A stretch of 64,000 bases of DNA from Infirmifilum sp. (lineage in GTDB: Archaea; Thermoproteota; Thermoprotei; Thermofilales; Thermofilaceae). The notes under the pieces were generated by a model. It ran no database searches. It was not told the origin of the DNA and saw only the letters and a program-made list of their open reading frames with translations. Shown one piece after another: positions 17,169 to 33,132 of this stretch (position 1 is its first letter; each line of letters begins with the position of its first letter). Location: contig JBEULP010000062.1 in assembly GCA_041287245.1 (NCBI GenBank), positions 1 to 64,000 of the forward strand, read 5' to 3'. The position numbers were made by a program, and so were the translations under genes.

Positions 17169-20003
17169 GTGTCTGTGGCTGCTGAACAGCCTGTTACCGC
17201 GCTTCGGGGCGTGTTGCATGAGAGGCTTGTGGACCTGCTTGAGAGGGAGGGGTATCGTAGCCTAAACTATATTCAGCTCGAGGCTTTGAGGCGCAAGAAC
17301 TCTCAACACCTGTTAATAATAGCTCCTACGGGCTCTGGGAAGACGGAGGCAGCTGTCCTCCCCATTCTTGACAGCCTCCTCCGGGAGGGGGGGAAACCAA
17401 TATATGCTCTCTACGTCACGCCTCTCAGGGCTCTTAACAGGGACATAAACCTTAGGCTCCGTAGGTTTTTCACCTCTCTGGGCTTCGCGGCTGAGATAAG
17501 GCACGGTGATACGCCCCAGGCACAGCGTAGGAGAATAGCTGAAAACCCACCCCACTTTTTGATAACCACGCCTGAGACTCTCCAGTTCATACTCGTAGAC
17601 AAACGGTATAGGGAGAGCCTCGGTAATCTCCGCTGGCTCGTCGTCGACGAGCTTCACGAGCTGATAGACGATAAGAGGGGGGTTCAGCTAAGCCTCGCCC
17701 TGGAGCGGCTCCGCTTACTCTCAAGGGGGCTTCGAGTCATAGCCCTGTCTGCTACGCTGCGCGACCCCCTGGAGGCCCTCGGATTTATAAGCGGCGGCAG
17801 GGGAGGAACTGTTATCGAGTGGTCTCAGAGGAAAAACTACAAAATCATGCTTGCCGACCTTCCAGAAGCACGTGAGGGTGAGCCAGGTGGCCTCGCCCCC
17901 GAGCTCTATGAGAGGATAAAGCTTCTCGTTGATGAGGTCTCGAAAGGAGGTGTGATAATCTTCACTAATACACGTGACACTGCAGAGCTTGTAGGGCGTA
18001 TATTGTCCCACGAGTTTAATCTGGACGTCAGGGTTCACCACGGGAGCCTTTCACGGGAGGAGCGAGAGGAGGCTGAGTCGCTCTTCAAGGAGGGTAAGGT
18101 TAAAGCCATCGTAGCAACTTCTAGCCTGGAGCTGGGGATAGACATCGGCTATGCGAGGCTCGTAGTACAGTTCGGTTCTCCGCGGCAGGCTATAAAGCTC
18201 GTACAGCGCATAGGCCGCTCCAGGCACAGGCTCAGCGAGACCTCCGAGGGGATACTAGTTCCCCTTGGGTTAGAGGACGCCTTAGAGTCAGTGGTTCTCG
18301 GGAGGAGGGCTGTTAACGGGGACCTTGAACAACTCGACTTGTACACAGCCCCCCTCGACGTCCTTGCCCACCAGGTCGCGGGGCTCCTTATGGAGTACCG
18401 CGAGCTCCCCTTGGAGACGCTTTACAGTGTGGTTACTAGGGCACAACCCTACCACAACCTGACCTACGGGGCTCTCTTGGACCTCCTACGCTTCATGGAC
18501 TCCATAGGGACTGCCCGACTCCTAGGGGACAAGGTCAGGGTGGGCAGGCGTACCATCAGCTACTATTACAACGCTGCCTCCATGATACCTGACAACCCCT
18601 CCTTCGAAGTGGAGGACATGGCTTCGAGGAGGAAGATAGGGCACCTAGACTACTCCTTCGCCTCCATCATAGATAGGGGCAAGGTGATCATCCTGGGGGG
18701 CAGGGCCTGGACAATAGAGGAGATAGACATAGAGAGGAACAAGGTCTACGTGACTGAATTCACAAGGGAGCTTGGAGAGCCCCCCGTATGGACAGGCCAG
18801 ACGCTCCCAGTCGAGTACCGCGTGGCCCGGGAGGTCGGCGCTTTTTACAGGAGGCTCGACAGCCTCTTAAAGAAGGGTAGGGAGCACGAGCTCTTCTCGC
18901 TTTACGCTCTACCCCGTGTAGCCTCCCTCCGGCTAAAGGAACTCGTTGAGAAGCAGCGGGCTTTCGGCTTCATGCCCTCAGAAGCGGATCTCGTGGTTGA
19001 GGTTGCCAGGAAGAACGGGAAGACCCTCGCGGTCTACCACACATTCCTAGGGACGAAGGGTAACAACCTGCTGGCACTACTCCTAGCCTTCTCGATAAGG
19101 GGGTTCTACGGCGTAACTGTAAGGTACTACTCGGATCCCTACCGGATATTCCTCTACGCAGACAGCGAGCTCCAGCCTGATAAGCTTCGCGATGCAATCT
19201 TGAAGGGCGTCCCATGGGCCCTCGAGAGGCTTGATGAGGCGGTACGTGACAGTAACGCTTACATGCTCGAGCTTCTCCAGGTTGCGGTACGCCTTGGCGT
19301 GCTGGAGAAGGGTAAGGGTAGAGTCGAGTCGGGCTACCTTTCAACGCTAAAGAGGAAGCTTAGAGGCACTCCGGTAGACCGAGAAGCAATAAGCTCCTGT
19401 CTTGTTGAGCACTTCAACCTAAGGGCTGTTGAAAGCCTGCTTGAGTCCCTAGCCTCTGGCCGGAAGAAGATCCATTTATACACGGTTCCCGATCTAAGCC
19501 CAATCGCGCAGCTGATCTTCGAGAAGCCCTTTGTGAGAACCGGGGTGTTGTCCTCTGGCCTCCCAGTCTCAGCAGTCTTCAACGCGGTGCTAAACCGCCT
19601 CGAGAACAGCAGGGTCTTACTCTACTGTATCCACTGCGACGAATGGTACGCCGAGCTTCGCGTACGCGAGGCGAAGGACATACGTGCATGCCCCAGGTGT
19701 GGCTCGAAGGCTCTAGCCGTGCTCAGACCCTACGAGGCGGACAGCTTGAAGGTGATAAAGAAATGGAAAAAGGGTGTTAAGCTGTCCCCAGAGGAGGCGA
19801 GGTTCGTGGAGAAGGCGAGACAGACAGCCTCCCTTTACATGTCATATGGGTATCCCGCGATTCTGGCGCTCGCAGGCCATGGTATAGGACCCTCAACCGC
19901 CAAGAGCCTCCTATCGAAGAGCAGGGATACGGAGACGCTTGTGAAGAACATCCTACTAGCTGAGGCAAACTACACGAGGACTAGAAAATACTGGGAGGAA
20001 TGA
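17169..20003 (+). CDS. lhr: Lhr-family SF2 helicase
   Basis: APTGSGKT, TTPETL, DELH, HHGSLS, SSLELGIDIG, QRIGRS, C-terminal CxxC..CxxC. Confidence 0.9.
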   Translation: MSVAAEQPVTALRGVLHERLVDLLEREGYRSLNYIQLEALRRKNSQHLLIIAPTGSGKTEAAVLPILDSLLREGGKPIYALYVTPLRALNRDINLRLRRFFTSLGFAAEIRHGDTPQAQRRRIAENPPHFLITTPETLQFILVDKRYRESLGNLRWLVVDELHELIDDKRGVQLSLALERLRLLSRGLRVIALSATLRDPLEALGFISGGRGGTVIEWSQRKNYKIMLADLPEAREGEPGGLAPELYERIKLLVDEVSKGGVIIFTNTRDTAELVGRILSHEFNLDVRVHHGSLSREEREEAESLFKEGKVKAIVATSSLELGIDIGYARLVVQFGSPRQAIKLVQRIGRSRHRLSETSEGILVPLGLEDALESVVLGRRAVNGDLEQLDLYTAPLDVLAHQVAGLLMEYRELPLETLYSVVTRAQPYHNLTYGALLDLLRFMDSIGTARLLGDKVRVGRRTISYYYNAASMIPDNPSFEVEDMASRRKIGHLDYSFASIIDRGKVIILGGRAWTIEEIDIERNKVYVTEFTRELGEPPVWTGQTLPVEYRVAREVGAFYRRLDSLLKKGREHELFSLYALPRVASLRLKELVEKQRAFGFMPSEADLVVEVARKNGKTLAVYHTFLGTKGNNLLALLLAFSIRGFYGVTVRYYSDPYRIFLYADSELQPDKLRDAILKGVPWALERLDEAVRDSNAYMLELLQVAVRLGVLEKGKGRVESGYLSTLKRKLRGTPVDREAISSCLVEHFNLRAVESLLESLASGRKKIHLYTVPDLSPIAQLIFEKPFVRTGVLSSGLPVSAVFNAVLNRLENSRVLLYCIHCDEWYAELRVREAKDIRACPRCGSKALAVLRPYEADSLKVIKKWKKGVKLSPEEARFVEKARQTASLYMSYGYPAILALAGHGIGPSTAKSLLSKSRDTETLVKNILLAEANYTRTRKYWEE

Positions 20004-21161: not shown

Positions 21162-21644
21162 TTATATTAACCCCTCGAGAGCCTGAAGAGCCTCCTCCAT
21201 CCAGTTCTCAATCTCGACAACCCTCCCGCACCCAGAAAGCTTTACACGGGGCCTGACGCCCCAGTTCATTTCGACCAGCAGCCCGTACAGCGCCGCCTGA
21301 ACGACCTCGAACCTCCGGAACCCTCCATAACTTTTCAGCTCAACAACCTCCCGGGGGAGACCCTCGACGAACAATACCTGGTCTGCCACCCCGTAGAGCC
21401 AGCCGAACCGAAACCTCCAGGCGAGTGGTAGAGGTGTTGATGCTATCTTCTCGCTCAGTACGAGGCTTAAGTCCCCCCAGAAACGCTCGTGCAGGTAGCG
21501 CCCCTCCGCGGCGCCTCTGCCCCTGCCTCTCCGGTACCTTCCAGCTACCTGGGTTACCGTATATTTCCTCTCATGGGAAGCTAACGCGCGCTCGAAGCGT
21601 TGTAGGGATTGGGATAGGAGCGAGTTGACTATGCTACTTCGCAT
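21162..21644 (-). CDS. PD-(D/E)XK nuclease, RecB/Cas4-like, without Fe-S cysteines
   Basis: GRYLH, GVAD, VELK, QAALY motifs I-IV; start assumed at ATG 21644, overlapping the radA-like stop. Confidence 0.72.
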   Translation of the reverse strand: MRSSIVNSLLSQSLQRFERALASHERKYTVTQVAGRYRRGRGRGAAEGRYLHERFWGDLSLVLSEKIASTPLPLAWRFRFGWLYGVADQVLFVEGLPREVVELKSYGGFRRFEVVQAALYGLLVEMNWGVRPRVKLSGCGRVVEIENWMEEALQALEGLI

Positions 21645-22590
21645 CGTGTAGACCGTCATCCTCTATTCTGAACTCCGCACTAACCCCCTTGGCGAGCCGG
21701 GGGCTGTCGAGAACCTCTACGAGGAAGCTATCCCCGGTCTTCTTCATTAGGAAGCGGTGTGTACTCGCGTGCGCTATGATGTTCCCACCCGCGGGCAGCT
21801 TAACCGCGACACCCCACGCGCTGGGAACGCTAACAACCTGGTTCGTGATGACAGCTACAAGGCTGTAGAGCCTGGAGAGCCTCTTAATCCAGTCGAGCAT
21901 ATAGTTGATCCGCTGCTGCCTCATCGCTAGCCTCTCCCGCCCGCGGAACTGAGCCCTGTAGAGAGCTATAACCGAATCTATGACTACAAGCCTCGCATCA
22001 TTCTTCAGGTACTTCGACAATTCCCTCACCACAAATTCTTCAAGCTCGTCGACGCTGAGCGGCCGTACAACATATATGTTCGCCAGGGGGTCTTCAACTC
22101 CAAACCTCTTAGCTATAGCCTCAACCCTCTCAGGGCTAAACGTCCCCTCAGTGTCCACGTAGACTGCAGAGCCCCCCAGCCCGCCGTGCGATGGGGACAG
22201 CTGAACCGTGACTGCCAGCTGGTGGCAGAGCTGTGTCTTACCACTCCCAAACTCACCGGCAAACTCGTAGATATCGTAGGCAGTCAACCCGCCCCCGAGG
22301 AGGGAGTCTATGGAGCTAACCCCGGTTGTAAGCGAATCGCGCTGCCTAAGCATCGAGGCATACTCCTTCCCGCTTATAGCCTTAGCCTCCCAGCCTATAA
22401 TCCTCCTAGCAGTCCTTACAATCCTGAAGGCTCTCTCGAAGTCGATTCCAGCCATCTCCTCCAGCTCCTCAGGATTGAAGAGCACGAGGTCTTCCAGTGT
22501 TTCAATGCCCGCTGCCTTCAGCCTGGCCACCGTAACCTTGCCGATCCCCTCCTCATGCAAGAGCTCGTCAACGCTGTGCACCGGCATCAC
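21634..22590 (-). CDS. RadA/Rad51-like recombinase, divergent paralog with N-terminal HhH domain
   Basis: GIGKVT HhH, GEFGSGKTQ Walker A, DTEGTF, VIDS Walker B, TNQV, GGNIIAHAST. Confidence 0.88.
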   Translation of the reverse strand: MMPVHSVDELLHEEGIGKVTVARLKAAGIETLEDLVLFNPEELEEMAGIDFERAFRIVRTARRIIGWEAKAISGKEYASMLRQRDSLTTGVSSIDSLLGGGLTAYDIYEFAGEFGSGKTQLCHQLAVTVQLSPSHGGLGGSAVYVDTEGTFSPERVEAIAKRFGVEDPLANIYVVRPLSVDELEEFVVRELSKYLKNDARLVVIDSVIALYRAQFRGRERLAMRQQRINYMLDWIKRLSRLYSLVAVITNQVVSVPSAWGVAVKLPAGGNIIAHASTHRFLMKKTGDSFLVEVLDSPRLAKGVSAEFRIEDDGLHDAK

Positions 22591-23128
22591 CGCAGAAAAC
22601 CTCGTCGTCTACAAGACACTTCCCATCCGCTGTGCAGACAATCCTCCTCGTAAACCTACCTATCTCTTCGAGCCACCTATCCCCGGAAACAACTACAGGC
22701 ACCTTGTAAGTAGCTGCTATACGCCTAAGGATGTCCAGCGCGTAGACAATACCACTGTTCGCGTCCCTTGTAAAACGTTGGTCTAGGTCTTCGACGATCA
22801 CGGGCTTTCTCTCCACGTCGAGCTTCCGGGGAAGATCGAACAAAAGATACTCGAGGAACTCCCCGTCGAGGACTGCTGGGACATAAAAACTCCTCGGGAT
22901 TTCAAGGTCTATCCCGCTTACGAGGATAACCCCGTGGGGTAAAATAACCCTGCTGGAGCAGACCTCGACCTGAGTTGTAAGGGGTTGAAACAGTACCGTG
23001 GTTTCTAGGCTGATCCTCGAAGCCTCATCTGCTAGCTCTCCAAATATCGCTCGGAGCTCCTCATCCCTGAAAACCTTAAGATGGGCTCTCGAGAAGCCCT
23101 CCCTTCCTATAACTATCAACGAGCTCAT
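22568..23128 (-). CDS. Hypothetical protein, possibly a degenerate (Walker A-less) RecA-fold protein
   Basis: PVIVEDLD (Walker B-like) followed by LRRIAATYKVPVVVS, like the RecA-family helix-strand; overlaps both neighbours. Confidence 0.5.
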   Translation of the reverse strand: MSSLIVIGREGFSRAHLKVFRDEELRAIFGELADEASRISLETTVLFQPLTTQVEVCSSRVILPHGVILVSGIDLEIPRSFYVPAVLDGEFLEYLLFDLPRKLDVERKPVIVEDLDQRFTRDANSGIVYALDILRRIAATYKVPVVVSGDRWLEEIGRFTRRIVCTADGKCLVDDEVFCGDAGAQR

Positions 23129-23496
23129 AGGCCCAGCCTCTCCCTCCCCCTCCTGGCTATCACTTGTAGCCAGGGGTTGTCTGCTATAAATGAGGGTGTG
23201 CCCGCGTCCTCTACCGGAGGGCTCTCATGAGTTGTCTCCTCACTCTCCTCCTCCCTGGGTACTACGATGCCGACTAGCTCTCTGAGCTCCCGAAGCCTAC
23301 GGTACAGGTTAATTCCTTTCTCCGAGAGAGAGACGAGGTGTATTCTTCCTTTTTTCCTCGTTCTAATCAAGGAGTATTTTTCTAAAAGCTCTACCGCCTC
23401 CTTTGCCTTTTTCACGTTCTTAGATAATTCCACAAGGGTTTTTTCTCCCTCTCCAATCTTCCAGACCCAGAAGATTATACGTTCAAACTCGTCCAC
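23125..23496 (-). CDS. Winged-helix DNA-binding protein with acidic linker and PSFxxDNPW tail
   Basis: LEKYSLIRTRKKGRIHLVSLSEKG wing signature; first gene of the operon. Confidence 0.7.
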   Translation of the reverse strand: MDEFERIIFWVWKIGEGEKTLVELSKNVKKAKEAVELLEKYSLIRTRKKGRIHLVSLSEKGINLYRRLRELRELVGIVVPREEESEETTHESPPVEDAGTPSFIADNPWLQVIARRGRERLGL

Positions 23497-23519
23497 AAGG
23501 ATTATTGGATTGTTTATGT

Positions 23520-23553
23520 ATAAATATGTTATTATTGAGTATAATCTTGTTAT
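23520..23553. promoter_or_regulatory. Two 13-bp palindromic boxes, 21 bp apart, over the wHTH operon promoter
   Basis: ATAAATATGTTAT (23520-23532) and ATAATCTTGTTAT (23541-23553); the first overlaps the minus-strand TATA-like TTTATACA about 25 nt before the start. Confidence 0.6.
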
Positions 23554-23605
23554 TGTTAGTAGCCGGCGAAAATAACATTATAACGACCCCCCTCTTTAAC
23601 CCGTT

Positions 23606-24385
23606 ATGTCTACAGAGCTCAAGAAAAAGATATTCTGCCCCCAATGCCAAGACTACGTAAAACCAAGGGTCGTTAGAAGCTTCACCCTCTCAGGAGAAGT
23701 GATAATAGAGTATTATTGCCCGAAGCACGGCTTCATCACCTCTGAGAGGAAGACACTACCCCTCCCCCAGAGGAACATAACCCCAGGCGGGCTCTACATA
23801 GTTTTTGAGGGCATTGATGGAAGCGGGAAGACAACCCAGGCGGTAATGCTCTACGAGTACCTTTCGAGGAAAAACTACGAGGTAGTATTAGTCAGGGAGC
23901 CCTGGGTGAAGGCGATAAAGGACTTCCTGTATAAACACGACCTAGACCCCGACGCCGAAGCGTACCTGTTCGCAGCCGACCGGATAATCCTTCAAAAGGA
24001 AGTGGTGCTTCCTGCACTCGAAGCTGGAAAGATAGTTATTTCAGACCGCTCGGTATTCGCGAGCCTAGCGTATCAGGCCGCCCGGGGCCTACCGGAGGAG
24101 TTTATCATGGCTATTAACCGCTCCATACGCCTACCCGACATTGTGATCCTACTTGACCTCAACCCGGATGAGGCTGTGAAGCGGCTTAAAAACAGGGGTG
24201 AGACCACGAGGTTCGAGGATCCCGAGTTTATGGTGAAGGTTCGAGACAAGTATTTGAGCCTCGCCCAGAACTACAACTCCCTATTCGTGGTAGTCGACGC
24301 TTCAAAGCCGATCCGAGAGGTTCACCGGGATATCATCGCAAAGCTAAAGGAAAGGCTGGGCCACAGGTCCATCAACCTGGACTAG
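23606..24385 (+). CDS. tmk: Thymidylate kinase with N-terminal Zn-ribbon extension
   Basis: FEGIDGSGKTT, REP, AADR, SDR..SLAYQ; N-terminal CPQC...CPKH. Confidence 0.9.
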   Translation: MSTELKKKIFCPQCQDYVKPRVVRSFTLSGEVIIEYYCPKHGFITSERKTLPLPQRNITPGGLYIVFEGIDGSGKTTQAVMLYEYLSRKNYEVVLVREPWVKAIKDFLYKHDLDPDAEAYLFAADRIILQKEVVLPALEAGKIVISDRSVFASLAYQAARGLPEEFIMAINRSIRLPDIVILLDLNPDEAVKRLKNRGETTRFEDPEFMVKVRDKYLSLAQNYNSLFVVVDASKPIREVHRDIIAKLKERLGHRSINLD

Positions 24386-24414
24386 CGATAGAAAACAATT
24401 TAACTTCTTGGCGG

Positions 24415-25005
24415 GTGATTTTCCCGGTGGTCATGTTGCGCCGAGGCTCTGTCACCTCAGTGCTCTTGCTGGTACTTCTCCTTGTAGGACTGGCCTTCAT
24501 AGCTGGATACTACTTCGGCATCCGCGGACAGGCACCTTCACTCGGGACGCAACCCGTCGCTACGGGGGTGAGCATTAAGATAATTAACGATAGGGACTAC
24601 TACCCCGTGCTGATGAGCCTACTGTCCAACGCGAACAAATCCATCTATATAGCAATGTTCGAGTTCAAGAGCGATACGGACGAGATCTCCCAAATCGTCG
24701 AAACCCTTATTTCAAAGGCGAGGAAGGGCGTCGACGTTAAAGTAGTGTTGGAAAACTCTATAGACTCCAACGAGCTTACCTACAGGAGACTCCTAGACAA
24801 CGGTGTGGCAGTCAGGTTTGACACGAGGTCTAGGACAACCCATGCAAAACTTATAATTGTAGACGGCAGGTACGTGATAGTGGGCTCCCACAATTTTAGC
24901 TATATGGCGATGATGCGGAACCATGAGGCTAGCGTCCTTATAGACAGCCCCGAAATAGCTAGCGCAGAGACACAATACTTCATGCAGATATGGGGTGGAA
25001 ACTAG
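24415..25005 (+). CDS. Membrane-anchored phospholipase D / Nuc-family protein (single HKD)
   Basis: N-terminal TM; HAKLIIVD...GSHN...NHE; start may be ATG 24433. Confidence 0.85.
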   Translation: MIFPVVMLRRGSVTSVLLLVLLLVGLAFIAGYYFGIRGQAPSLGTQPVATGVSIKIINDRDYYPVLMSLLSNANKSIYIAMFEFKSDTDEISQIVETLISKARKGVDVKVVLENSIDSNELTYRRLLDNGVAVRFDTRSRTTHAKLIIVDGRYVIVGSHNFSYMAMMRNHEASVLIDSPEIASAETQYFMQIWGGN

Positions 25006-25295
25006 TGGAAAAGGACAGTATAGTCGGTCTAATTCTAGTAATCTTCGCACTAACCGTAGGCTCCGCGTATATCTACCTCCTCTTCTTCGCTGGGGAGGCT
25101 CTAAGCCTTCTAATCTTGAAGATCACCGCTCTCCTCACGGTGGGATCATTCCTATTTGTTATACTTGTTATAGGCTTTTCACTCCTTATTTCACCGCCAA
25201 CGGTGAAGATAGAGGAGATGGAGAGAAAATTAGCTGAGGAGCTAAGGAAACTTAAGGAGAAAGGCTACCCCTTCCCCTGGGCGGAGCAAGCATAA
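24990..25295 (+). CDS. Small two-TM membrane protein
   Basis: Two hydrophobic helices plus a charged tail; overlaps the PLD gene. Confidence 0.6.
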   Translation: MGWKLVEKDSIVGLILVIFALTVGSAYIYLLFFAGEALSLLILKITALLTVGSFLFVILVIGFSLLISPPTVKIEEMERKLAEELRKLKEKGYPFPWAEQA

Positions 25296-25416
25296 ACCTG
25301 CCGGCGTCTTTCAAGGCCTCAAGTGAAACTCCGATTCTAACCTGAAGGAAGCGGGAAAAAGACCCCTGGATAAAAGTATTTCTGCGTTTATAGTTTAAAG
25401 AATTCAGGGGTTACTG

Positions 25417-26799
25417 TTGAAGCTGGGTAAAATTCCTCTGAGGAGACTTAAGGAGATCTTAGAGAAAGCAGGAGTTACGGTCACTCTCGACTCAAATCCT
25501 CTTGACCAAGATACGGTTGTATCCACAAACCCCGCGATCGGCGTCCCCCTAAGGGCCCTTGGCTTCTTCGCTTTTCACTACACTGCGACAAACATCGCTG
25601 TCTCTCACGCTAGACCTGTTTATGCCACTCTATCAATACTCGCCCCTCCTGACACTGGTGATGAAGAGCTCGAAGCTATACTCAAGTCTTTCCTGAGAGA
25701 GTGTGAGAAATACGGGGTTCGCCTGGTAGGGGGTCACACTGCGCGATATGAAGGCATAGAGTACCCCCTTGCTGTCTCCACAATACTGGGTAAGAAGACA
25801 CGCGAGAGGGAAAAACCCTCCCCCGGCGACATCATCTATCTAGTCGGCAGGGTTGGCGCTGAGACTGCATGGCTACTGGGGAAAGAGGTGCCCCTAGAGG
25901 AGCTGTCTCCTCTAGATGAAGCCCTCCGTCTCCAAACGGTAACAAGCGTCAAGTTGATGCACGACGTATCGGAGGGAGGTATCCTGGGAGCCCTTTTAGA
26001 GGTCTCTCACCAGTACCACGTTAAGATCAAAGTTACGGCTCGAAGTATAGAAACTTATCCTGGGTTTCCAGAGGGCTACGAGCCTCTAGCCTCACCCACA
26101 TACGGCGCCCTCATCGTCTTCACCTCTCCCGCAGAGCCGCTCGAGGGCTACTGTGATGAAAGGGGCGTCACGTGCACACGGCTAGGTTTAGTGGAAGCCC
26201 CCGGGGTCGGGGTCGAGTATAAGGCGCAGCTCCTAACCGAGACGCCTGAGACGCCCCTAGTGGAGCTATACAACCCCTACACGCCTGGGAGCTGGGAGCC
26301 GGCGCAGGTTCTCCTGGCCGCCAAGAAGTTCGTCAGCATACCGGGGGTTGAGAGGATAATCCCAGAGGTTGGGACGAACATAGCTTATTCAAAGTTTAAA
26401 CCCGAGAGACCTGAGGACGTGGCTGCTATAGAAGGCAGAATAGTGAGGACCTCGCGTGGGGCGCGGATCTGCGGCTTTCCAGCTTACGGGGCGTCTCGGC
26501 ACCTGGCTCGAGTCATAATTGAGGCGTCGAAGCACGACGAGAACCTCAGGTCAGCTATAAACTTGAAGCCCGAGCCCAGGCTTATTGAAAGGCTTAGACT
26601 TCTAGGTGTAGACGTCCGTGAGATAAAGGATTTTTCCTCGTTTTGCCCTGTCAGCGAGGCCCTGGCCAGGGGCTCCAGGGGGCAAGCGTTCTACTACCGT
26701 GACCTTCCCAACCTAGAGCCTTCACTGGTTGTGCTGGCTGAAAACCCGCATGTCCTCGTTGAGACCGTCAGGAAGGCCCTAGCCGAGGACCTTCATTAA
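25417..26799 (+). CDS. AIR synthase (PurM/ThiL/HypE)-like domain fused to a ThiN-type thiamine-phosphate synthase domain
   Basis: GGHT and MHDVSEGG in the N-terminal part; IPEVGTNIAY, DVAAIEGRI, GASRHLAR, AINLK in the C-terminal part. Confidence 0.78.
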   Translation: MKLGKIPLRRLKEILEKAGVTVTLDSNPLDQDTVVSTNPAIGVPLRALGFFAFHYTATNIAVSHARPVYATLSILAPPDTGDEELEAILKSFLRECEKYGVRLVGGHTARYEGIEYPLAVSTILGKKTREREKPSPGDIIYLVGRVGAETAWLLGKEVPLEELSPLDEALRLQTVTSVKLMHDVSEGGILGALLEVSHQYHVKIKVTARSIETYPGFPEGYEPLASPTYGALIVFTSPAEPLEGYCDERGVTCTRLGLVEAPGVGVEYKAQLLTETPETPLVELYNPYTPGSWEPAQVLLAAKKFVSIPGVERIIPEVGTNIAYSKFKPERPEDVAAIEGRIVRTSRGARICGFPAYGASRHLARVIIEASKHDENLRSAINLKPEPRLIERLRLLGVDVREIKDFSSFCPVSEALARGSRGQAFYYRDLPNLEPSLVVLAENPHVLVETVRKALAEDLH

Positions 26800-26843
26800 C
26801 GCTGAGGGAAAACCTAAATATTAGCCCTTACCGTTCAAGCTTG

Positions 26844-26897
26844 ATGATGACTTCGCTTGCCCCCCGGCGATCGGTGAGCCGGATTGCCGCGGACTGA
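26844..26897 (+). ncRNA. Box C/D guide sRNA
   Basis: Box C ATGATGA 26844-26850, box D CTGA 26894-26897, degenerate D'/C'; intergenic, TATA-like CTAAATA upstream. Confidence 0.7.
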
Positions 26898-26944
26898 AAC
26901 CCTATGGGAAAACGTTATATTACTGCTGTTTTCTTTAAAGGTTA

Positions 26945-27667
26945 ATGGCGAAGCTACTATTCCAGTATGACAGCTACATCAAAGAGTTTGAGGCTACGGT
27001 GACGCGCGTATCAGGCGAGAAGGTATTCCTTGACCAGACAGCCTTCCACCCGGGACCAAGCGGTGGCCTAGACACTGATACCGGCTGGCTTATCCTGCCC
27101 GACGGGCAACGCGTTGAGGTCGTTAAAGCCGTAGAGGAAGGTGGCGATATAGCCCACGTGTTGTCCTCGCAAGCCAACATACCCCAAGGCGCCAGGGTAA
27201 GGGGCTTAATCAACTGGGATAGGAGGTACAGGATGATGAGGCTGCACACAGCCAGCCACGTCTTGGCATCCGTCCTCTACAAAAAGTATGGTGCTCTCGT
27301 AACAGGGGGTCACATAGAACCTGAGGGTGCGCGCGACGACTTCGACCTGCCTGGAGCCGTAGACTGGAAAGCGGCCTTAGCCGAGGCTATAAGAGAGTCA
27401 AACGAGATCATTAGGAGGTGCGTAGAGGTCAAGGTGTACTGGCTCAGGCGCGAAGAGGCTTTGAAAATACCGGGCATCGTTAAGCTTGCCGGAAGGTTAC
27501 CTCCCGAGGTGGAGGAGATAAGGATAGTTGAGATCCCGGATGTAGACATACAGGCGGACGGCGGGCCACACGTTAAAAACACGTGCGAGATCGGGGAGAT
27601 ACTCCTAGTGAAGACCGAAAGCAAGGGGGCTAAACGGAAGAGAGTTTATTATACTCTAAATCCCTAG
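26945..27667 (+). CDS. alaX: Alanyl-tRNA editing protein (AlaX-M type)
   Basis: DSY, LDQTAFHP, MRLHTASH, ADGGPHV. Confidence 0.9.
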   Translation: MAKLLFQYDSYIKEFEATVTRVSGEKVFLDQTAFHPGPSGGLDTDTGWLILPDGQRVEVVKAVEEGGDIAHVLSSQANIPQGARVRGLINWDRRYRMMRLHTASHVLASVLYKKYGALVTGGHIEPEGARDDFDLPGAVDWKAALAEAIRESNEIIRRCVEVKVYWLRREEALKIPGIVKLAGRLPPEVEEIRIVEIPDVDIQADGGPHVKNTCEIGEILLVKTESKGAKRKRVYYTLNP

Positions 27668-27677
27668 CACTTCTAGT

Positions 27678-27774
27678 ATAACATTGTTATACTTTATATT
27701 AACAATGTTATATTTTTCAAAAATAATGTTTTGCTACAACATACTAAGGTTATATTCAAATATAACATAGTTAT
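27678..27774. repeat. Array of five 13-bp palindromic boxes (consensus ATAACAnTGTTAT) at exact 21-bp period
   Basis: ATAACATTGTTAT 27678, TTAACAATGTTAT 27699, AAAATAATGTTTT 27720, ATACTAAGGTTAT 27741, ATAACATAGTTAT 27762. Confidence 0.8.
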
Positions 27775-27816
27775 TACAAAAATCTTCGTTAGTATGGTTT
27801 TTATAGCCGGAAGTAG

Positions 27817-28503
27817 TTGGAAAATGTGTCCAGCGAGATAGCCCACCTATTCTCGAGGCACGCCGGCGAATACGATTCCTGGTACGAAACCCCTTCCGGC
27901 AGGGTTGTGCTTGAAGCCGAGGCTCGGCTCTTAGACAAGGTGCTTCCACTTGGAATAGGCTTAGACTTGGGCGCGGGGACAGGCGTTTTCGCCGAAAGGC
28001 TCTCCCGTACCAGGGAAATTGTGTGTCTCGACCCGTCCCCCGGGATGCTAGAGCGGGCTCGAGGAAGATGCCTGCACATGGTTCTAGGTGTAGCCGAGTT
28101 CCCACCATTTCGACAAGGCTCCCTTGACTTCATATACATGGTTACCGTCTTAGAGTTCCTCCAAGAACCTCTCCAGGCCCTAAGCGCGGCCAAACAGCTA
28201 CTAAAGCCCACGGCTGTCCTCGCGATACTCTCAGTCGAGAAGAATAGCAGTTGGGGTAGGCTATACCAGGAGTTAGCTGCCGAGAATAAGGATCCCATCC
28301 TAGCAGCCGGGAGATTCTACTCGGAGGGTGAGGTTGAAGGGCTCCTCGGCAGAGCGGGTTACCACGTATACGCTAGGGGCGCCACCCTCGACTACGAGCC
28401 GTTAACGGTCCCGGATAAGCCGCCGAAGATCTACGTAAATGAGCGCTGCCCTTCATGTGGCGTTTTCCTCCTCCTTGCCGCTCCCCCTCCTAGGCAACCC
28501 TAA
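27817..28503 (+). CDS. Class I SAM-dependent methyltransferase
   Basis: YDSWY, LDLGAGTG, LDPSPGML. Confidence 0.88.
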   Translation: MENVSSEIAHLFSRHAGEYDSWYETPSGRVVLEAEARLLDKVLPLGIGLDLGAGTGVFAERLSRTREIVCLDPSPGMLERARGRCLHMVLGVAEFPPFRQGSLDFIYMVTVLEFLQEPLQALSAAKQLLKPTAVLAILSVEKNSSWGRLYQELAAENKDPILAAGRFYSEGEVEGLLGRAGYHVYARGATLDYEPLTVPDKPPKIYVNERCPSCGVFLLLAAPPPRQP

Positions 28504-30429: not shown

Positions 30430-31497
30430 GTCAGGAGAGGTGTAGACGAGCCTTTTTATTCATCTGCATCCAGTAGAAGTTAAAGAGGGGGTTGAGGCTG
30501 CGTGATTTTTCCACAATCTTAGCCCACGTCCTGTCAAGCCTGAGCCCCTCTTTAAAAGCACGCTCCGTCAGGGCGTAGAGGGCTTCGCGTGAAGCGGTTC
30601 CGGCAAGGTATTCTCTCCGGAGCTTTATCGCCTCTCTGACGAGCTGCTCCTCAACCTCTTTAATCTCGCCAAAAATTTGGGCTGCGTATCTCGGATAGGA
30701 AGCTAGAAGCTTCCTATGCAGTTCCTCATGGATCCACCAGAAAGCCTGTGGGTCATAGCTGTCAGTAGGGCTTGGGCCGAGGTCGGGGAGGCCTGACTCG
30801 ATGAACACCGGCTTATACAGTGATATGCACGGGCTAGACGTGCCCGTGGCGAATATTATGGGGGTTTTCTCGTAGAGGAACGCTATGACGGAGCCTGCTG
30901 TCTGGCTGGGCCTAGTAAGCCCTCCGGCGTGCATGCATATATCTCTCATCGAGCCTCTCGCTGGGGAGTAGCCCTCGTCCCCGGCGTGGCTACGCATTAG
31001 TGAGCTTATCTTCTCGAAGTCCAACCGGCCCGCGTTTTTCTCGAGGAAGCTCTGTGTAAACCTTTGCCTCTCCACGCCTTTGGCTATCCTGGTATAAAGG
31101 AAGTCTGAGAAGTGGCCTGAGAAGTCGAGCTCTTCTTTCTCGAGGTGTTTCTTCTCGAGATACTCAAGCAGGCTCCTGCTAACCTTATCCCAACGGCTAT
31201 GTATGGTTAAGGCGTTTGAAATACTTCTTACACTCTTCACCTTCTCCGCAACCCAGTAGGGGCCAGCCGTCTCGAGAACCCAGGCCTCGTTCGGGTCTGC
31301 TATGATAAAGGAGTTGTGGTAGTAGAGCTTACCTGATCTGCTGCAATTCCCTCCCTGTCCGTACTCCTCCAGGAGCCCCGTGACAACGCTTAGTGCCTCC
31401 GCAGCACTCCTAGACCTCTCCAAGCCTAGGCGCACGAGATCCATCCCTGTTAAGCCTGTTTTCCGGTAGGGCAGCTTCGTAAAAACCGCCTCGTTAA

Positions 31498-32848
31498 CAT
31501 AAGCTGAAAGCCTCGCCCCTTTAGGGCGGGGGTGAGTAGAAACTCTTATAAACCTCTCTTGGTTTGTTGTCTCCGGGGGGCATAGAGTTCTACGAGGGCA
31601 TAAAGAGGAGAGGTAGGGGTGTTCTTTGTGGGCGATGAGGGTTTCCTAACCCTGACTGTCGGGGTGAGGGTTAGCCCCGAGCCCGAGGTGGTAGAACTCT
31701 TGAAGAGGTATAGGTCTGCCCTGTGGCACTCCATAAGGGCTATACACGGCCACGTGGTGAGGAGCAACTTGAAGAGGGCGCCATCCCTCTCAACCACGCA
31801 CAGGCTTCTCTACAACGACCTCAGGGAGGGGTTCGGCCTCCCGTCGAGAATCGCAATTGATTGTTACAGGGAGGCCCTGGCAATCTACAAGTCTTGGCTT
31901 AACAATAGGGACAGAGGCAGACTGCCAACTCCGAGAAAACTAAGGATGTGGCTTACGCACGGGCAAGGGTATAGAATTAGAGACGGCTTCATCGAGATCA
32001 TCGGTGGTATCAGGCTCAAAATCGTTGGTTGGGATAGGAGATATGATTCTTACGAGAATAGAGAGGCTAGGCTTGTGTTCAGAGGAGGCAAAATGTTTCT
32101 AATGGTGGTGAAGAGGATCCCGAAGCCCGAGAAGATAAAGTCCTCAGGAGTTCTCGCGGTCGACGTGAACGAGAAGAAGATCGTGTTCGGAAATAGCGGG
32201 GCCTCCAAGTCTATTGATACGCCTGTGGGGAAGGCCCTCCACTACAAAAGGCTCGCTGAGGAGTTGCAGAGAAAGTACTCGAACGGCAAGTACAGGCCCT
32301 GGCTGGCGAGGAGGGGGATTCGCGAGAGAATAAAGAGTTTCGATAGAAAGGCTAGAAACGCCGTCGAGGACTGGGCTAGGAAGACGGCCCTAGAGATCGT
32401 GAGAGAGGCCGAGAGGCACTCCTACGCGGTCGCGAGGGAGGGCTTGAACGGACTGGTGGAGTCCTTGAGGAAGCTGCCGAAGGATCATAGGGTGAAGCTG
32501 ATGATACTGTCGTACAAAAGGCTGGGATACTGGATCGACTGGCAGGCCTCGAAGCACGGCGTGCCCGTCGTAGTCGTGGATCCGAGGAACACCTCATCGA
32601 CATGCCCAAGGTGCGGGTCGAAACTGAGAGGAAGCGGCTACAGGAGGCTGAGATGCCCGAGATGCGGGTTTGAGGCGGACAGAGATTTCATAGCGCTGCT
32701 GAACATCGAGAAAAAAGCCCTACAAGAAATGGGAGGAGCTCTGACCCCCTCGACTGCCCCGCAGATGAAAGATGTAAACCCGAATAGATGCCGGGGAACC
32801 TCCCCGCCCCGAAGGAACCCTCGCCCTTCAGGGCGGGGAGGAGGTCAG
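31498..32848 (+). mobile_element. IS200/IS605-family, IS1341-type (tnpB only) element, 1351 bp, no target duplication
   Basis: Left-end hairpin AAAG-CCTCGCCCCTTTAGGGCGGGGG; right end GAAC-CCTCGCCCTTCAGGGCGGGG-AGGAGGTCAG; removal restores the host frame. Confidence 0.9.
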
Positions 32849-32872
32849 CGATTGCGACGCCGTACTCGTTAA
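31619..32872 (+). CDS. tnpB: TnpB RNA-guided endonuclease
   Basis: RuvC-I LAVDVN, RuvC-II VAREGL, Zn finger CPRC..CPRC, RuvC-III DRD; the ORF reads through the right end. Confidence 0.92.
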   Translation: MFFVGDEGFLTLTVGVRVSPEPEVVELLKRYRSALWHSIRAIHGHVVRSNLKRAPSLSTTHRLLYNDLREGFGLPSRIAIDCYREALAIYKSWLNNRDRGRLPTPRKLRMWLTHGQGYRIRDGFIEIIGGIRLKIVGWDRRYDSYENREARLVFRGGKMFLMVVKRIPKPEKIKSSGVLAVDVNEKKIVFGNSGASKSIDTPVGKALHYKRLAEELQRKYSNGKYRPWLARRGIRERIKSFDRKARNAVEDWARKTALEIVREAERHSYAVAREGLNGLVESLRKLPKDHRVKLMILSYKRLGYWIDWQASKHGVPVVVVDPRNTSSTCPRCGSKLRGSGYRRLRCPRCGFEADRDFIALLNIEKKALQEMGGALTPSTAPQMKDVNPNRCRGTSPPRRNPRPSGRGGGQRLRRRTR

Positions 32873-33132
32873 CACCCATCTCCGCCCCCCACATCCACCA
32901 GGGGCGGGATAGAAACACCGCATAGGTCTCTTCTACCTGGGGGACGCGTATGTAAGTGCAGGATACGTATTCCTCCGAGTGGCGCCGCCGGGGCACCACC
33001 TCCAGAACTTGGGCCTCGTTTGGTTCTCGGTCGCTGTTCTTGGCAAAGATAGAAACCTTCTCGGACGTGTACTCTTTCAAGGCGATGATAGTGTCACACA
33101 CAGGTGCTGATACAACCACCGGAAATTTATAC

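Follow-up and report, generated by a model that had tools for sequence, protein, structure and literature searches.

ParR, the adaptor of type II (ParR/parC/ParM) partition, has a ribbon-helix-helix (RHH) fold, SlmA of Escherichia coli has a TetR-type fold, and AspA of the Sulfolobus plasmid pNOB8 works with ParA and ParB. In plasmid R1, parC is reported to be both operator and centromere, with two sets of repeats split by a spacer (PMC2241845). For archaeal crenactin, residues 187-203 of arcadin-2 are described as binding the hydrophobic groove of the actin via a tryptophan (Kd 31 nM; complex in PDB 5LY3), the peptide depolymerises crenactin filaments in vitro and leaves them monomeric, and ParR is said to occupy the same groove on ParM (Izore 2016, PMC5173319). 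SlmA, activated on dispersed DNA sites (SBS), is reported to break FtsZ polymers (PMC4117426). Thermoproteales are described as having neither FtsZ nor ESCRT, with their division and the role of crenactin left open (PMC7617429, PMC7613921, PMC10936438), and as having a diverged CdvA orthologue (PMC10936438).

The locus described here lies in a stretch of 64,000 nucleotides (the window), contig C86 of an Infirmifilum sp. genome (G000) of 1.81 Mb in 119 contigs; relatives are designated by handles (G001, G002, etc.), genera by g1, g4, g6, g7 and g9, and one family by f10. Four genes on the minus strand form an operon that includes no actin gene. They encode, in order, a 123-aa winged-helix protein (wHTH, 23125-23496), a 186-aa protein with a degenerate RadA-like segment (22568-23128; probability 93%, E 3.3e-7 over 57 columns by hhalign against an alignment of RadA paralogues), a RadA paralogue (21634-22590) that shares 41.6% identity with the canonical RadA, encoded on contig C25, and a probable PD-(D/E)XK nuclease of 165 aa (21162-21659) that has no Pfam match of its own, its orthologue at L177 matching PDDEXK_1 (E 2e-4). 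BLAST matches to the 186-aa protein were found in 16 of the 18 neighbourhoods examined, and in G018 (L253) the RadA paralogue and the nuclease are present without an adjoining 186-aa gene. RadA-paralogue genes stand beside SWIM-finger genes in G025, G026 and G018; in G025, genes for MinD-like and pilus ATPases are also close by, and the wHTH gene of G009 is preceded by a gene recognized by eye as endonuclease III-like (loci L176, L178, L253 and L226). These neighbours hint at DNA exchange or repair. In the window, some 1.2 kb separate the end of the operon from an Lhr-type helicase gene (17169-20003).

By its AlphaFold2 model the wHTH is a generic winged helix (residues 1-75), followed by a disordered linker (81-97) and two short C-terminal helices (102-121). 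VIA-align placed the fold with the MarR/ArsR/PadR type (Z 10.8, rmsd 2.6, 78 aligned), and Foldseek returned generic ArsR/MarR/PadR regulators, with AspA at rank 9 (E 3.2e-3, 23% identity). AspA (PDB 5K5Q, 4RS8) is likewise a small archaeal winged helix, described as centromere-binding, but the wHTH matches it no better than it matches many ArsR/MarR regulators and the operon has no ParA/ParB genes. The wHTH sequence gave nothing meaningful against the PDB, weak winged-helix hints in Pfam, a blank in NCBIfam and leads at or below 0.90 in the ESM Atlas. The 123-aa protein has one named homologue, from Infirmifilum lucidum, and full-length matches to the wHTH with its tail are confined to families of the same order (120 genomes; 0 of 29 in f10).

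The operon shares a 110-bp intergenic gap with the divergent thymidylate kinase gene (tmk, 23606-24385, plus strand), which has a TTATAA at 23578-23583 and whose N-terminus (23606-23740) looks like a zinc-ribbon extension, with a weak Pfam match. As an earlier note on this DNA had pointed out, two phased boxes are found in this gap. They are 13-bp palindromes 21 bp apart, each one mismatch from ATAAC-N3-GTTAT: a proximal box at 23520-23532 (ATAAATATGTTAT; ATAACATATTTAT on the minus strand) and a distal box at 23541-23553 (ATAATCTTGTTAT), the latter between the wHTH promoter and the tmk promoter. On the minus strand, the last five bases of the proximal box together with position 23519 spell TTTATA (23519-23524, -28 to -23 from the wHTH start codon), which we infer to be the TATA box of the wHTH gene; the operon transcript is probably leaderless. 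The overlap of box and likely TATA, also noticed earlier, goes beyond this genome: TTTATA invariably replaces GTTAT at the end of the proximal box in the ten aligned promoters, and the overlap is present in all orthologues of two genera. Boxes are kept in nine orthologous promoters from two genera, usually at about -57 and -36 from the start codon (-35 and -14 in G003; three boxes in G001 and four in G010), the wHTH promoters of g1 and g4 having 2-4 boxes each. Contigs from three DNA runs of one study, which may be the source sample, covered both this promoter site and the five-box array described below with identical letters.

The phasing is beyond chance. With 24 arrays of other genomes, 100 boxes in all, as its only training set, a matrix found 11 pairs at 21-bp spacing in the 1.81-Mb genome, compared to 0-4 pairs at the control spacings (15-35 except 21) and 0-1 in 10 block shuffles. 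All 11 fall at four loci: the wHTH promoter, an array at 27.7 kb of the window, C18:1727-1845 and C49:12453-12529. Plain autocorrelation did not single out 21 bp, Tandem Repeats Finder detected neither the promoter pair nor the 27.7-kb array, Rfam gave zero matches in 23000-28200, and a sigma-70 promoter scan, a method unsuited to archaea, gave chance-level output.

In more distant relatives the promoter carries other palindromes. G025, of a third family, has ten ATAAC-N2-GTTAT boxes in 20-bp steps upstream of its wHTH orthologue, where 7 of the 9 pair matches of the genome, including all the exact ones, are located. The wHTH promoter of G026 (another family) has seven TCACA-N4-TGTGA boxes in 20-21-bp steps, and all three exact copies of this palindrome in the genome are within it. 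By eye, G009 has three TCACA-type boxes like those of G026, spaced 24 and 19 bp; it belongs to another genus, and its wHTH groups with that of G026, with weak tree support (73/89) and long branches. This change of palindrome with the wHTH orthologue is the strongest sign that the wHTH binds the boxes, which we consider likely. A box-bound wHTH would block access of TBP/TFB to the TATA, and the protein probably represses its own RadA-paralogue operon in this way. The autorepression proposed in the earlier note is therefore likely right, as judged from the TATA overlap and the covariation of palindrome and orthologue, although six orthologous promoters are box-less, one by eye (G012) and five by a scan of 8.5 kb around the gene (G013, G015, G020, G021, G022). 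The recognition helices of these box-less orthologues resemble that of the host wHTH. G030 has two wHTH copies and an ambiguous box status. In G012 (L230:1384-1794) the wHTH tail looks frameshifted or damaged. The pair pattern outside g1 and g4 gave 0-2 matches per genome against 0-8 for the reversed control and was not counted, and none of five g9 genomes had any match; degenerate pairs in G004, G005 and G009 escaped a de novo palindrome scan, so its blanks are weak. One genome, G002, has arrays without a wHTH match, on its face boxes persisting without the gene, which the earlier note had named as evidence against the binding. However, the contig ends inside the 186-aa gene, and since this is the next gene of the operon the wHTH gene would fall off the contig.

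What the earlier note had overlooked is the tail of the wHTH (23143-23202, minus strand; PSFIADNPWLQVIARRG), which is of the arcadin-2 type and is predicted to dock in the hydrophobic groove of crenactin. An HMM of six tails from proteins in the arcadin-2 position, no wHTH being included, ranked the wHTH first among 13,125 ORFs (E 1.3e-9), and a model of 32 arcadin-2 tails matched it with E 5.8e-8. Of 30 genes that directly follow a crenactin gene, 27 share this C-terminus, the match spanning the last 24 residues of the wHTH, and the common form of the tail is a C-terminal N-x-W-x-x-x-L-x-x-R helix. In G048, whose crenactin matches PDB 4CJ7, the next gene encodes 203 aa and ends in the NEW..L..R form of the tail, in agreement with the groove-binding peptide 187-203. 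Like arcadin-2 (Rkd2), the wHTH by its sequence carries this helix after an unconserved linker, but arcadin-2 has a core of about 200-250 aa and is encoded right after crenactin, while the wHTH is a 123-aa winged helix encoded before RadA-paralogue genes and outside the arcade cluster, which has its own arcadin-2. The crenactin of the host is on contig C49, above the NCBIfam cut-off and with the rest of the arcade cluster present, and the gene in the arcadin-2 position (C49:104570-105310) is separate from the wHTH gene. From these sequence comparisons we expect, with considerable confidence, that the wHTH tail binds crenactin. Tail and crenactin were both present in 50 of 61 genomes and both absent in 7, with the tail only in 3 (57-90% complete) and crenactin only in 1, a co-occurrence that is partly circular (arcadin-2 itself has the tail) and follows kinship. 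The seven genomes that are without both come from two families.

The same C-terminal tail is present on RHH, zinc-finger and HTH proteins, in some cases as two or three copies, and the tail genes on other elements are mostly without a clear array. In the host genome, C64 (L123:1907-6590) carries genes for a MinD/ParA-like ATPase, a pilus-type ATPase and a helicase and then a tail-bearing HTH protein, and C26 (L124:4559-5314) encodes a fourth tail-bearing protein (252 aa, no Pfam match) among a series of short genes of unknown function, apparently an integrated element. A zinc-finger/coiled-coil/tail protein of G005 (L243:3960-4900) has about eight related repeats ahead of it and, behind it, a gene with an AAA ATPase-like beginning; the locus is a candidate integrated element that would use the host crenactin. 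A small second replicon of 31.5 kb in G004 (contig C2, L241:8952-9350) has a 132-aa tail protein with no clear adjacent array.

The earlier note had also linked the promoter boxes to a five-box array 4 kb away. This array was found, with like geometry, at 27678-27774, with a 21-bp period and boxes at 27678, 27699, 27720, 27741 and 27762 (mismatches 0, 1, 3, 2 and 0). It starts 11 bp past the stop codon of alaX (tRNA editing protein, 26945-27667, plus strand) and is followed by a SAM methyltransferase gene (27817-28503, plus strand) that has its own TTTTATA at 27798-27804. The promoter stretch does align with the reverse complement of about 27734-27777, with 28 of 44 letters identical and 5 of 8 in the spacer, but other registers of the array score 24-27 of 44, so that the alignment shows no specific duplication. 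Nor is support seen for a special tie to this array, which is absent from the alaX-methyltransferase junction in 7/7 congeners and is one of several. All seven congeners have similar arrays of 3-5 boxes elsewhere, mostly at 3' ends of genes, with 3-15 pair matches each versus 0-1 for the reversed control. Against phage records the five-box array gave no real match.

The arrays found number about 2-7 per genome in the host genus and are spread round complete chromosomes, as in G001 where they lie at 357, 360, 437, 621, 1114, 1405 and 1634 kb. No array was found beyond the promoter array in G025, G026 and three g4 genomes, the latter with one pair match each, at the wHTH promoter. In other words, dispersed arrays are a trait of the host genus only. 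Of 40 loci scanned we kept 28 arrays, dropping the weak two-box matches (L094, L182, L118) and the pair-less loci. Their orientation relative to genes rests on a rough gene caller and a composition score, with hand curation using Pfam. By this curation 17 of the 28 start within 20 bp of a stop codon, and divergent gaps hold only 1-3 of 24 merged array sites, whereas 165 of the 464 gaps in the background are divergent (p 0.0007-0.026, Fisher test). Six of the 24 are in convergent gaps, which is not significant against the rough background (p 0.10); three convergent sites (L081, L095, L125) have Pfam support on both sides. The flanking genes have no common function and differ between species, although many arrays are near CRISPR, toxin-antitoxin and DUF3782 genes and some beside tRNA genes. 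At L082, L086, L127 and L128 no more than 260 bp separate the array from a coiled-coil gene; these genes are related, and two were confirmed as DUF3782 / PD-(D/E)XK.

Helical phasing is kept in these arrays: 62 of the 87 box gaps in 27 arrays are 21 bp and 15 are 42-45 bp. Arrays of the same genome have spacer letters in common (pairs in G001 are mostly 69-86% identical) and the similarity between arrays ends at the outer boxes, which points to spread by copying. The outer boxes are palindromic, but no target-site duplication or shared flank was evident in the array alignments. The positions turn over between species, and some sites persist across species. One site that recurs is upstream of dnaG, where boxes are present in 5 of 8 genomes and abut a TATA-like box in 4; it looks like an ordinary operator. 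The same place (L126:4580-4680 on C49 of the host genome, and L258-L262, L089 and L096) holds a conserved element, roughly 100 nt long, that has an inner hairpin and whose ends pair; it is present in 8/8 genomes and has no Rfam match, and we take it to resemble an archaeal H/ACA guide RNA.

How, then, would the boxes, the wHTH and crenactin fit together? Since 21 bp is two turns of the helix and 42-45 bp is four, one wHTH dimer per palindrome would place all dimers on one helix face. The protein would load not only on its own promoter but also on the longer arrays elsewhere in the chromosome, and its tails would grip crenactin there; a peptide that sequesters monomers when free might, as 4-10 clustered dimers, hold filament ends. 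On balance we lean towards the arrays acting as crenactin-coupling sites. The fuller reading, by analogy, of the wHTH as a ParR-like adaptor that autorepresses its operon and tethers parC-like chromosomal arrays to crenactin is the one we prefer, though we put it forward tentatively. The likeness to ParR/parC/ParM includes an array at the promoter of the adaptor itself (with the operator role suggested by the TATA overlap), arrays that are often two sets split by a spacer and are candidate attachment sites, and a DNA-binding head joined to a C-terminal helix that by sequence matches a binder of the actin groove. Such a double use has a precedent in R1, where parC is reported to serve likewise as operator and centromere (PMC2241845). 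However, the system described here is chromosomal and archaeal, with several arrays per chromosome in the genus; its sites are 13-bp palindromes at 21 bp instead of 11-bp direct repeats; its adaptor is a winged helix and not RHH; and the gene for the actin is on another contig, C49, with no phased pair near it, RadA paralogues and a probable nuclease being the partners in the operon. In its proposed working the system resembles type II partition, but it falls outside that class, as the actin is outside the locus and the adaptor is not RHH.

In favour of tethering are the avoidance of divergent gaps and the many arrays that begin near a stop codon, the conservation of the promoter boxes in nine relatives with a motif that follows the orthologue, and the resemblance of the tail to that of arcadin-2 in a genome that has crenactin. 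Against it, the known arcadin-2 peptide is reported to depolymerise crenactin, whereas a tether would require the reverse; a centromere made of several arrays per chromosome would be unusual; six orthologous promoters are box-less and the dispersed arrays belong to one genus; the dnaG-upstream site resembles an ordinary operator and the excess in convergent gaps is not significant; the co-occurrence of tail and crenactin comes partly by construction and kinship; G009 joins G026 weakly in the tree and its spacings of 24 and 19 bp are not 20-21; and the modelled fold is generic, AspA being ninth among many regulators. If the arrays were indeed attached, the system could help to position, pair or segregate chromosomes, and the RadA paralogues and nuclease transcribed with the wHTH may be connected with this. 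We offer as a still more speculative possibility that in Thermofilaceae an actin-based attachment of the chromosome exists in which the wHTH coats several phased arrays and hooks them to crenactin, with pairing or resolution of the tethered chromosomes left to the RadA paralogues and the nuclease. In that case no earlier example would be known of centromere-like or pairing-centre-like sites that are coupled to an actin of archaea.

The same parts are compatible with two other explanations. In animals MRTF is a transcription regulator that binds G-actin, and the wHTH could in parallel be a repressor that senses crenactin, its tail binding monomers so that the RadA-paralogue operon and a small number of other promoters would respond to the polymerisation state of crenactin, with the remaining arrays as extra operators or titration sites. 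We regard this as unlikely, but it accounts for a good deal: the box over the TATA in 10/10 promoters, the boxes before dnaG in 5/8 genomes, the five genomes where the promoter array alone was found and the recurrence of the tail on many regulator-type domains. The arcadin-2 peptide, which is described as making crenactin monomeric with nanomolar affinity (PMC5173319), also suits it. Less easily reconciled with sensing are the arrays between converging genes (L081, L095, L125) and the avoidance of divergent gaps, the functionally unrelated neighbours that differ between species, and the seven to ten boxes of G026 and G025, seemingly more than simple autorepression would need. If repression alone were true, the wHTH would still be a candidate actin-sensing transcription factor in a prokaryote.

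The second explanation, which we consider improbable, is a nucleoid occlusion like that of SlmA, with arrays concentrating depolymerising tails and so keeping crenactin filaments or a division structure off the DNA; induction together with the RadA paralogues could then make a damage checkpoint. Here the reported depolymerisation by the arcadin-2 peptide is an asset, as is the spread of arrays round complete chromosomes (G001), and the wHTH would share with SlmA, a sequence-specific DNA binder, the dispersed chromosomal sites and possibly a cytoskeletal polymer as target (PMC4117426). However, the target would be an actin and not FtsZ, the fold is different, and the sites are few: about 2-7 arrays were found in a genome of the host genus, and a single one in each of G025, G026 and the g4 genomes. 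What crenactin does in division, moreover, is left open in the literature (PMC10936438). Were either tethering or occlusion true, there would be a link from actin to chromosome in an archaeal lineage whose actin is the closest to F-actin in filament form. Whether crenactin contacts the chromosome is directly testable: the candidate protein is named, the site is 13 bp long, the positions of the arrays are exactly defined in five relatives with a single chromosome, and the peptide has 20 residues. The three natural variants of the motif are built-in specificity controls.

The other explanations, namely selfish copying, replication origins and an unlinked regulator, fit less well than tethering, sensing or occlusion. 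It is quite doubtful that the promoter pair is just an ordinary operator and the arrays a MITE-like cassette, selfish or neutral, tolerated at gene ends. The common spacer letters, the similarity that ends at the outer boxes, the turnover of positions and the vicinity of CRISPR, toxin-antitoxin and DUF3782 genes are all as expected of such a cassette, but neither target-site duplications nor shared flanks were evident, helical phasing is kept while the spacers diverge, some sites persist across species, and both the tail and the promoter arrays of 7-10 boxes would be left unexplained.

LexA is a repressor with a self-cleaving serine-protease domain, and the earlier note had framed the locus in the logic of either a LexA-like regulon or Rep/iteron systems. 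We have replaced this framing by the probable link to crenactin. The wHTH model shows winged helix, linker and tail helices only and there was no peptidase Pfam match; the recurrent sites are the own operon and dnaG only, the other neighbours being functionally unrelated and several arrays lying between converging genes, so that neither membership of LexA/SOS nor an SOS-type regulon is supported. As to Rep/iterons and to WhiP at oriC3, the likeness is that of a winged-helix protein beside repeated boxes (PMC4010727), and the idea that the wHTH fires origins as a WhiP/Rep-like initiator could draw on the repeats being AT-rich, intergenic and spaced by two helical turns, with tRNA genes next to some of them. 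The literature behind origins and pili (PMC4009838, PMC4010727, PMC4858521) reports three of the four Pyrobaculum origins without a precise mapped site (PMC4009838) and a Sulfolobus oriC3 that uses WhiP without ORBs (PMC4010727). However, we consider this idea very improbable: the boxes are palindromes and not iterons or ORBs, the protein is one winged helix with an actin-type tail, three separate cdc6 paralogues are present in 5/5 genomes with no phased pair in 8 cdc6 loci, in G001 and G006 at least some 35 kb separate cdc6 from the closest arrays, and array positions, that at 27.7 kb included, are non-syntenic and turn over. Equally improbable is an unlinked regulator that binds the boxes and has the wHTH gene merely as one of its targets. 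The close but box-less wHTH orthologues of g6, g7 and g9 would speak for it, but each of the three palindromes is concentrated at the orthologous wHTH promoter, and in G025 and G026 nearly all copies are there.

In the literature covered, with most subscription papers outside it, the boxes are undescribed and there is no winged helix with a crenactin-type tail. Two further observations concern other parts of the host genome. An AT-rich gap at C29:194601-194750 has four ATAAC-like boxes spaced 46, 36 and 54 bp, not phased at 21 bp, that precede a probable transporter operon and are perhaps the boxes of another regulator. In the window, a TnpB-like gene (31619-32872) seems, by eye, to split a peptidase gene into two parts (32688-33119 and 30431-31444) within 30431-33119.
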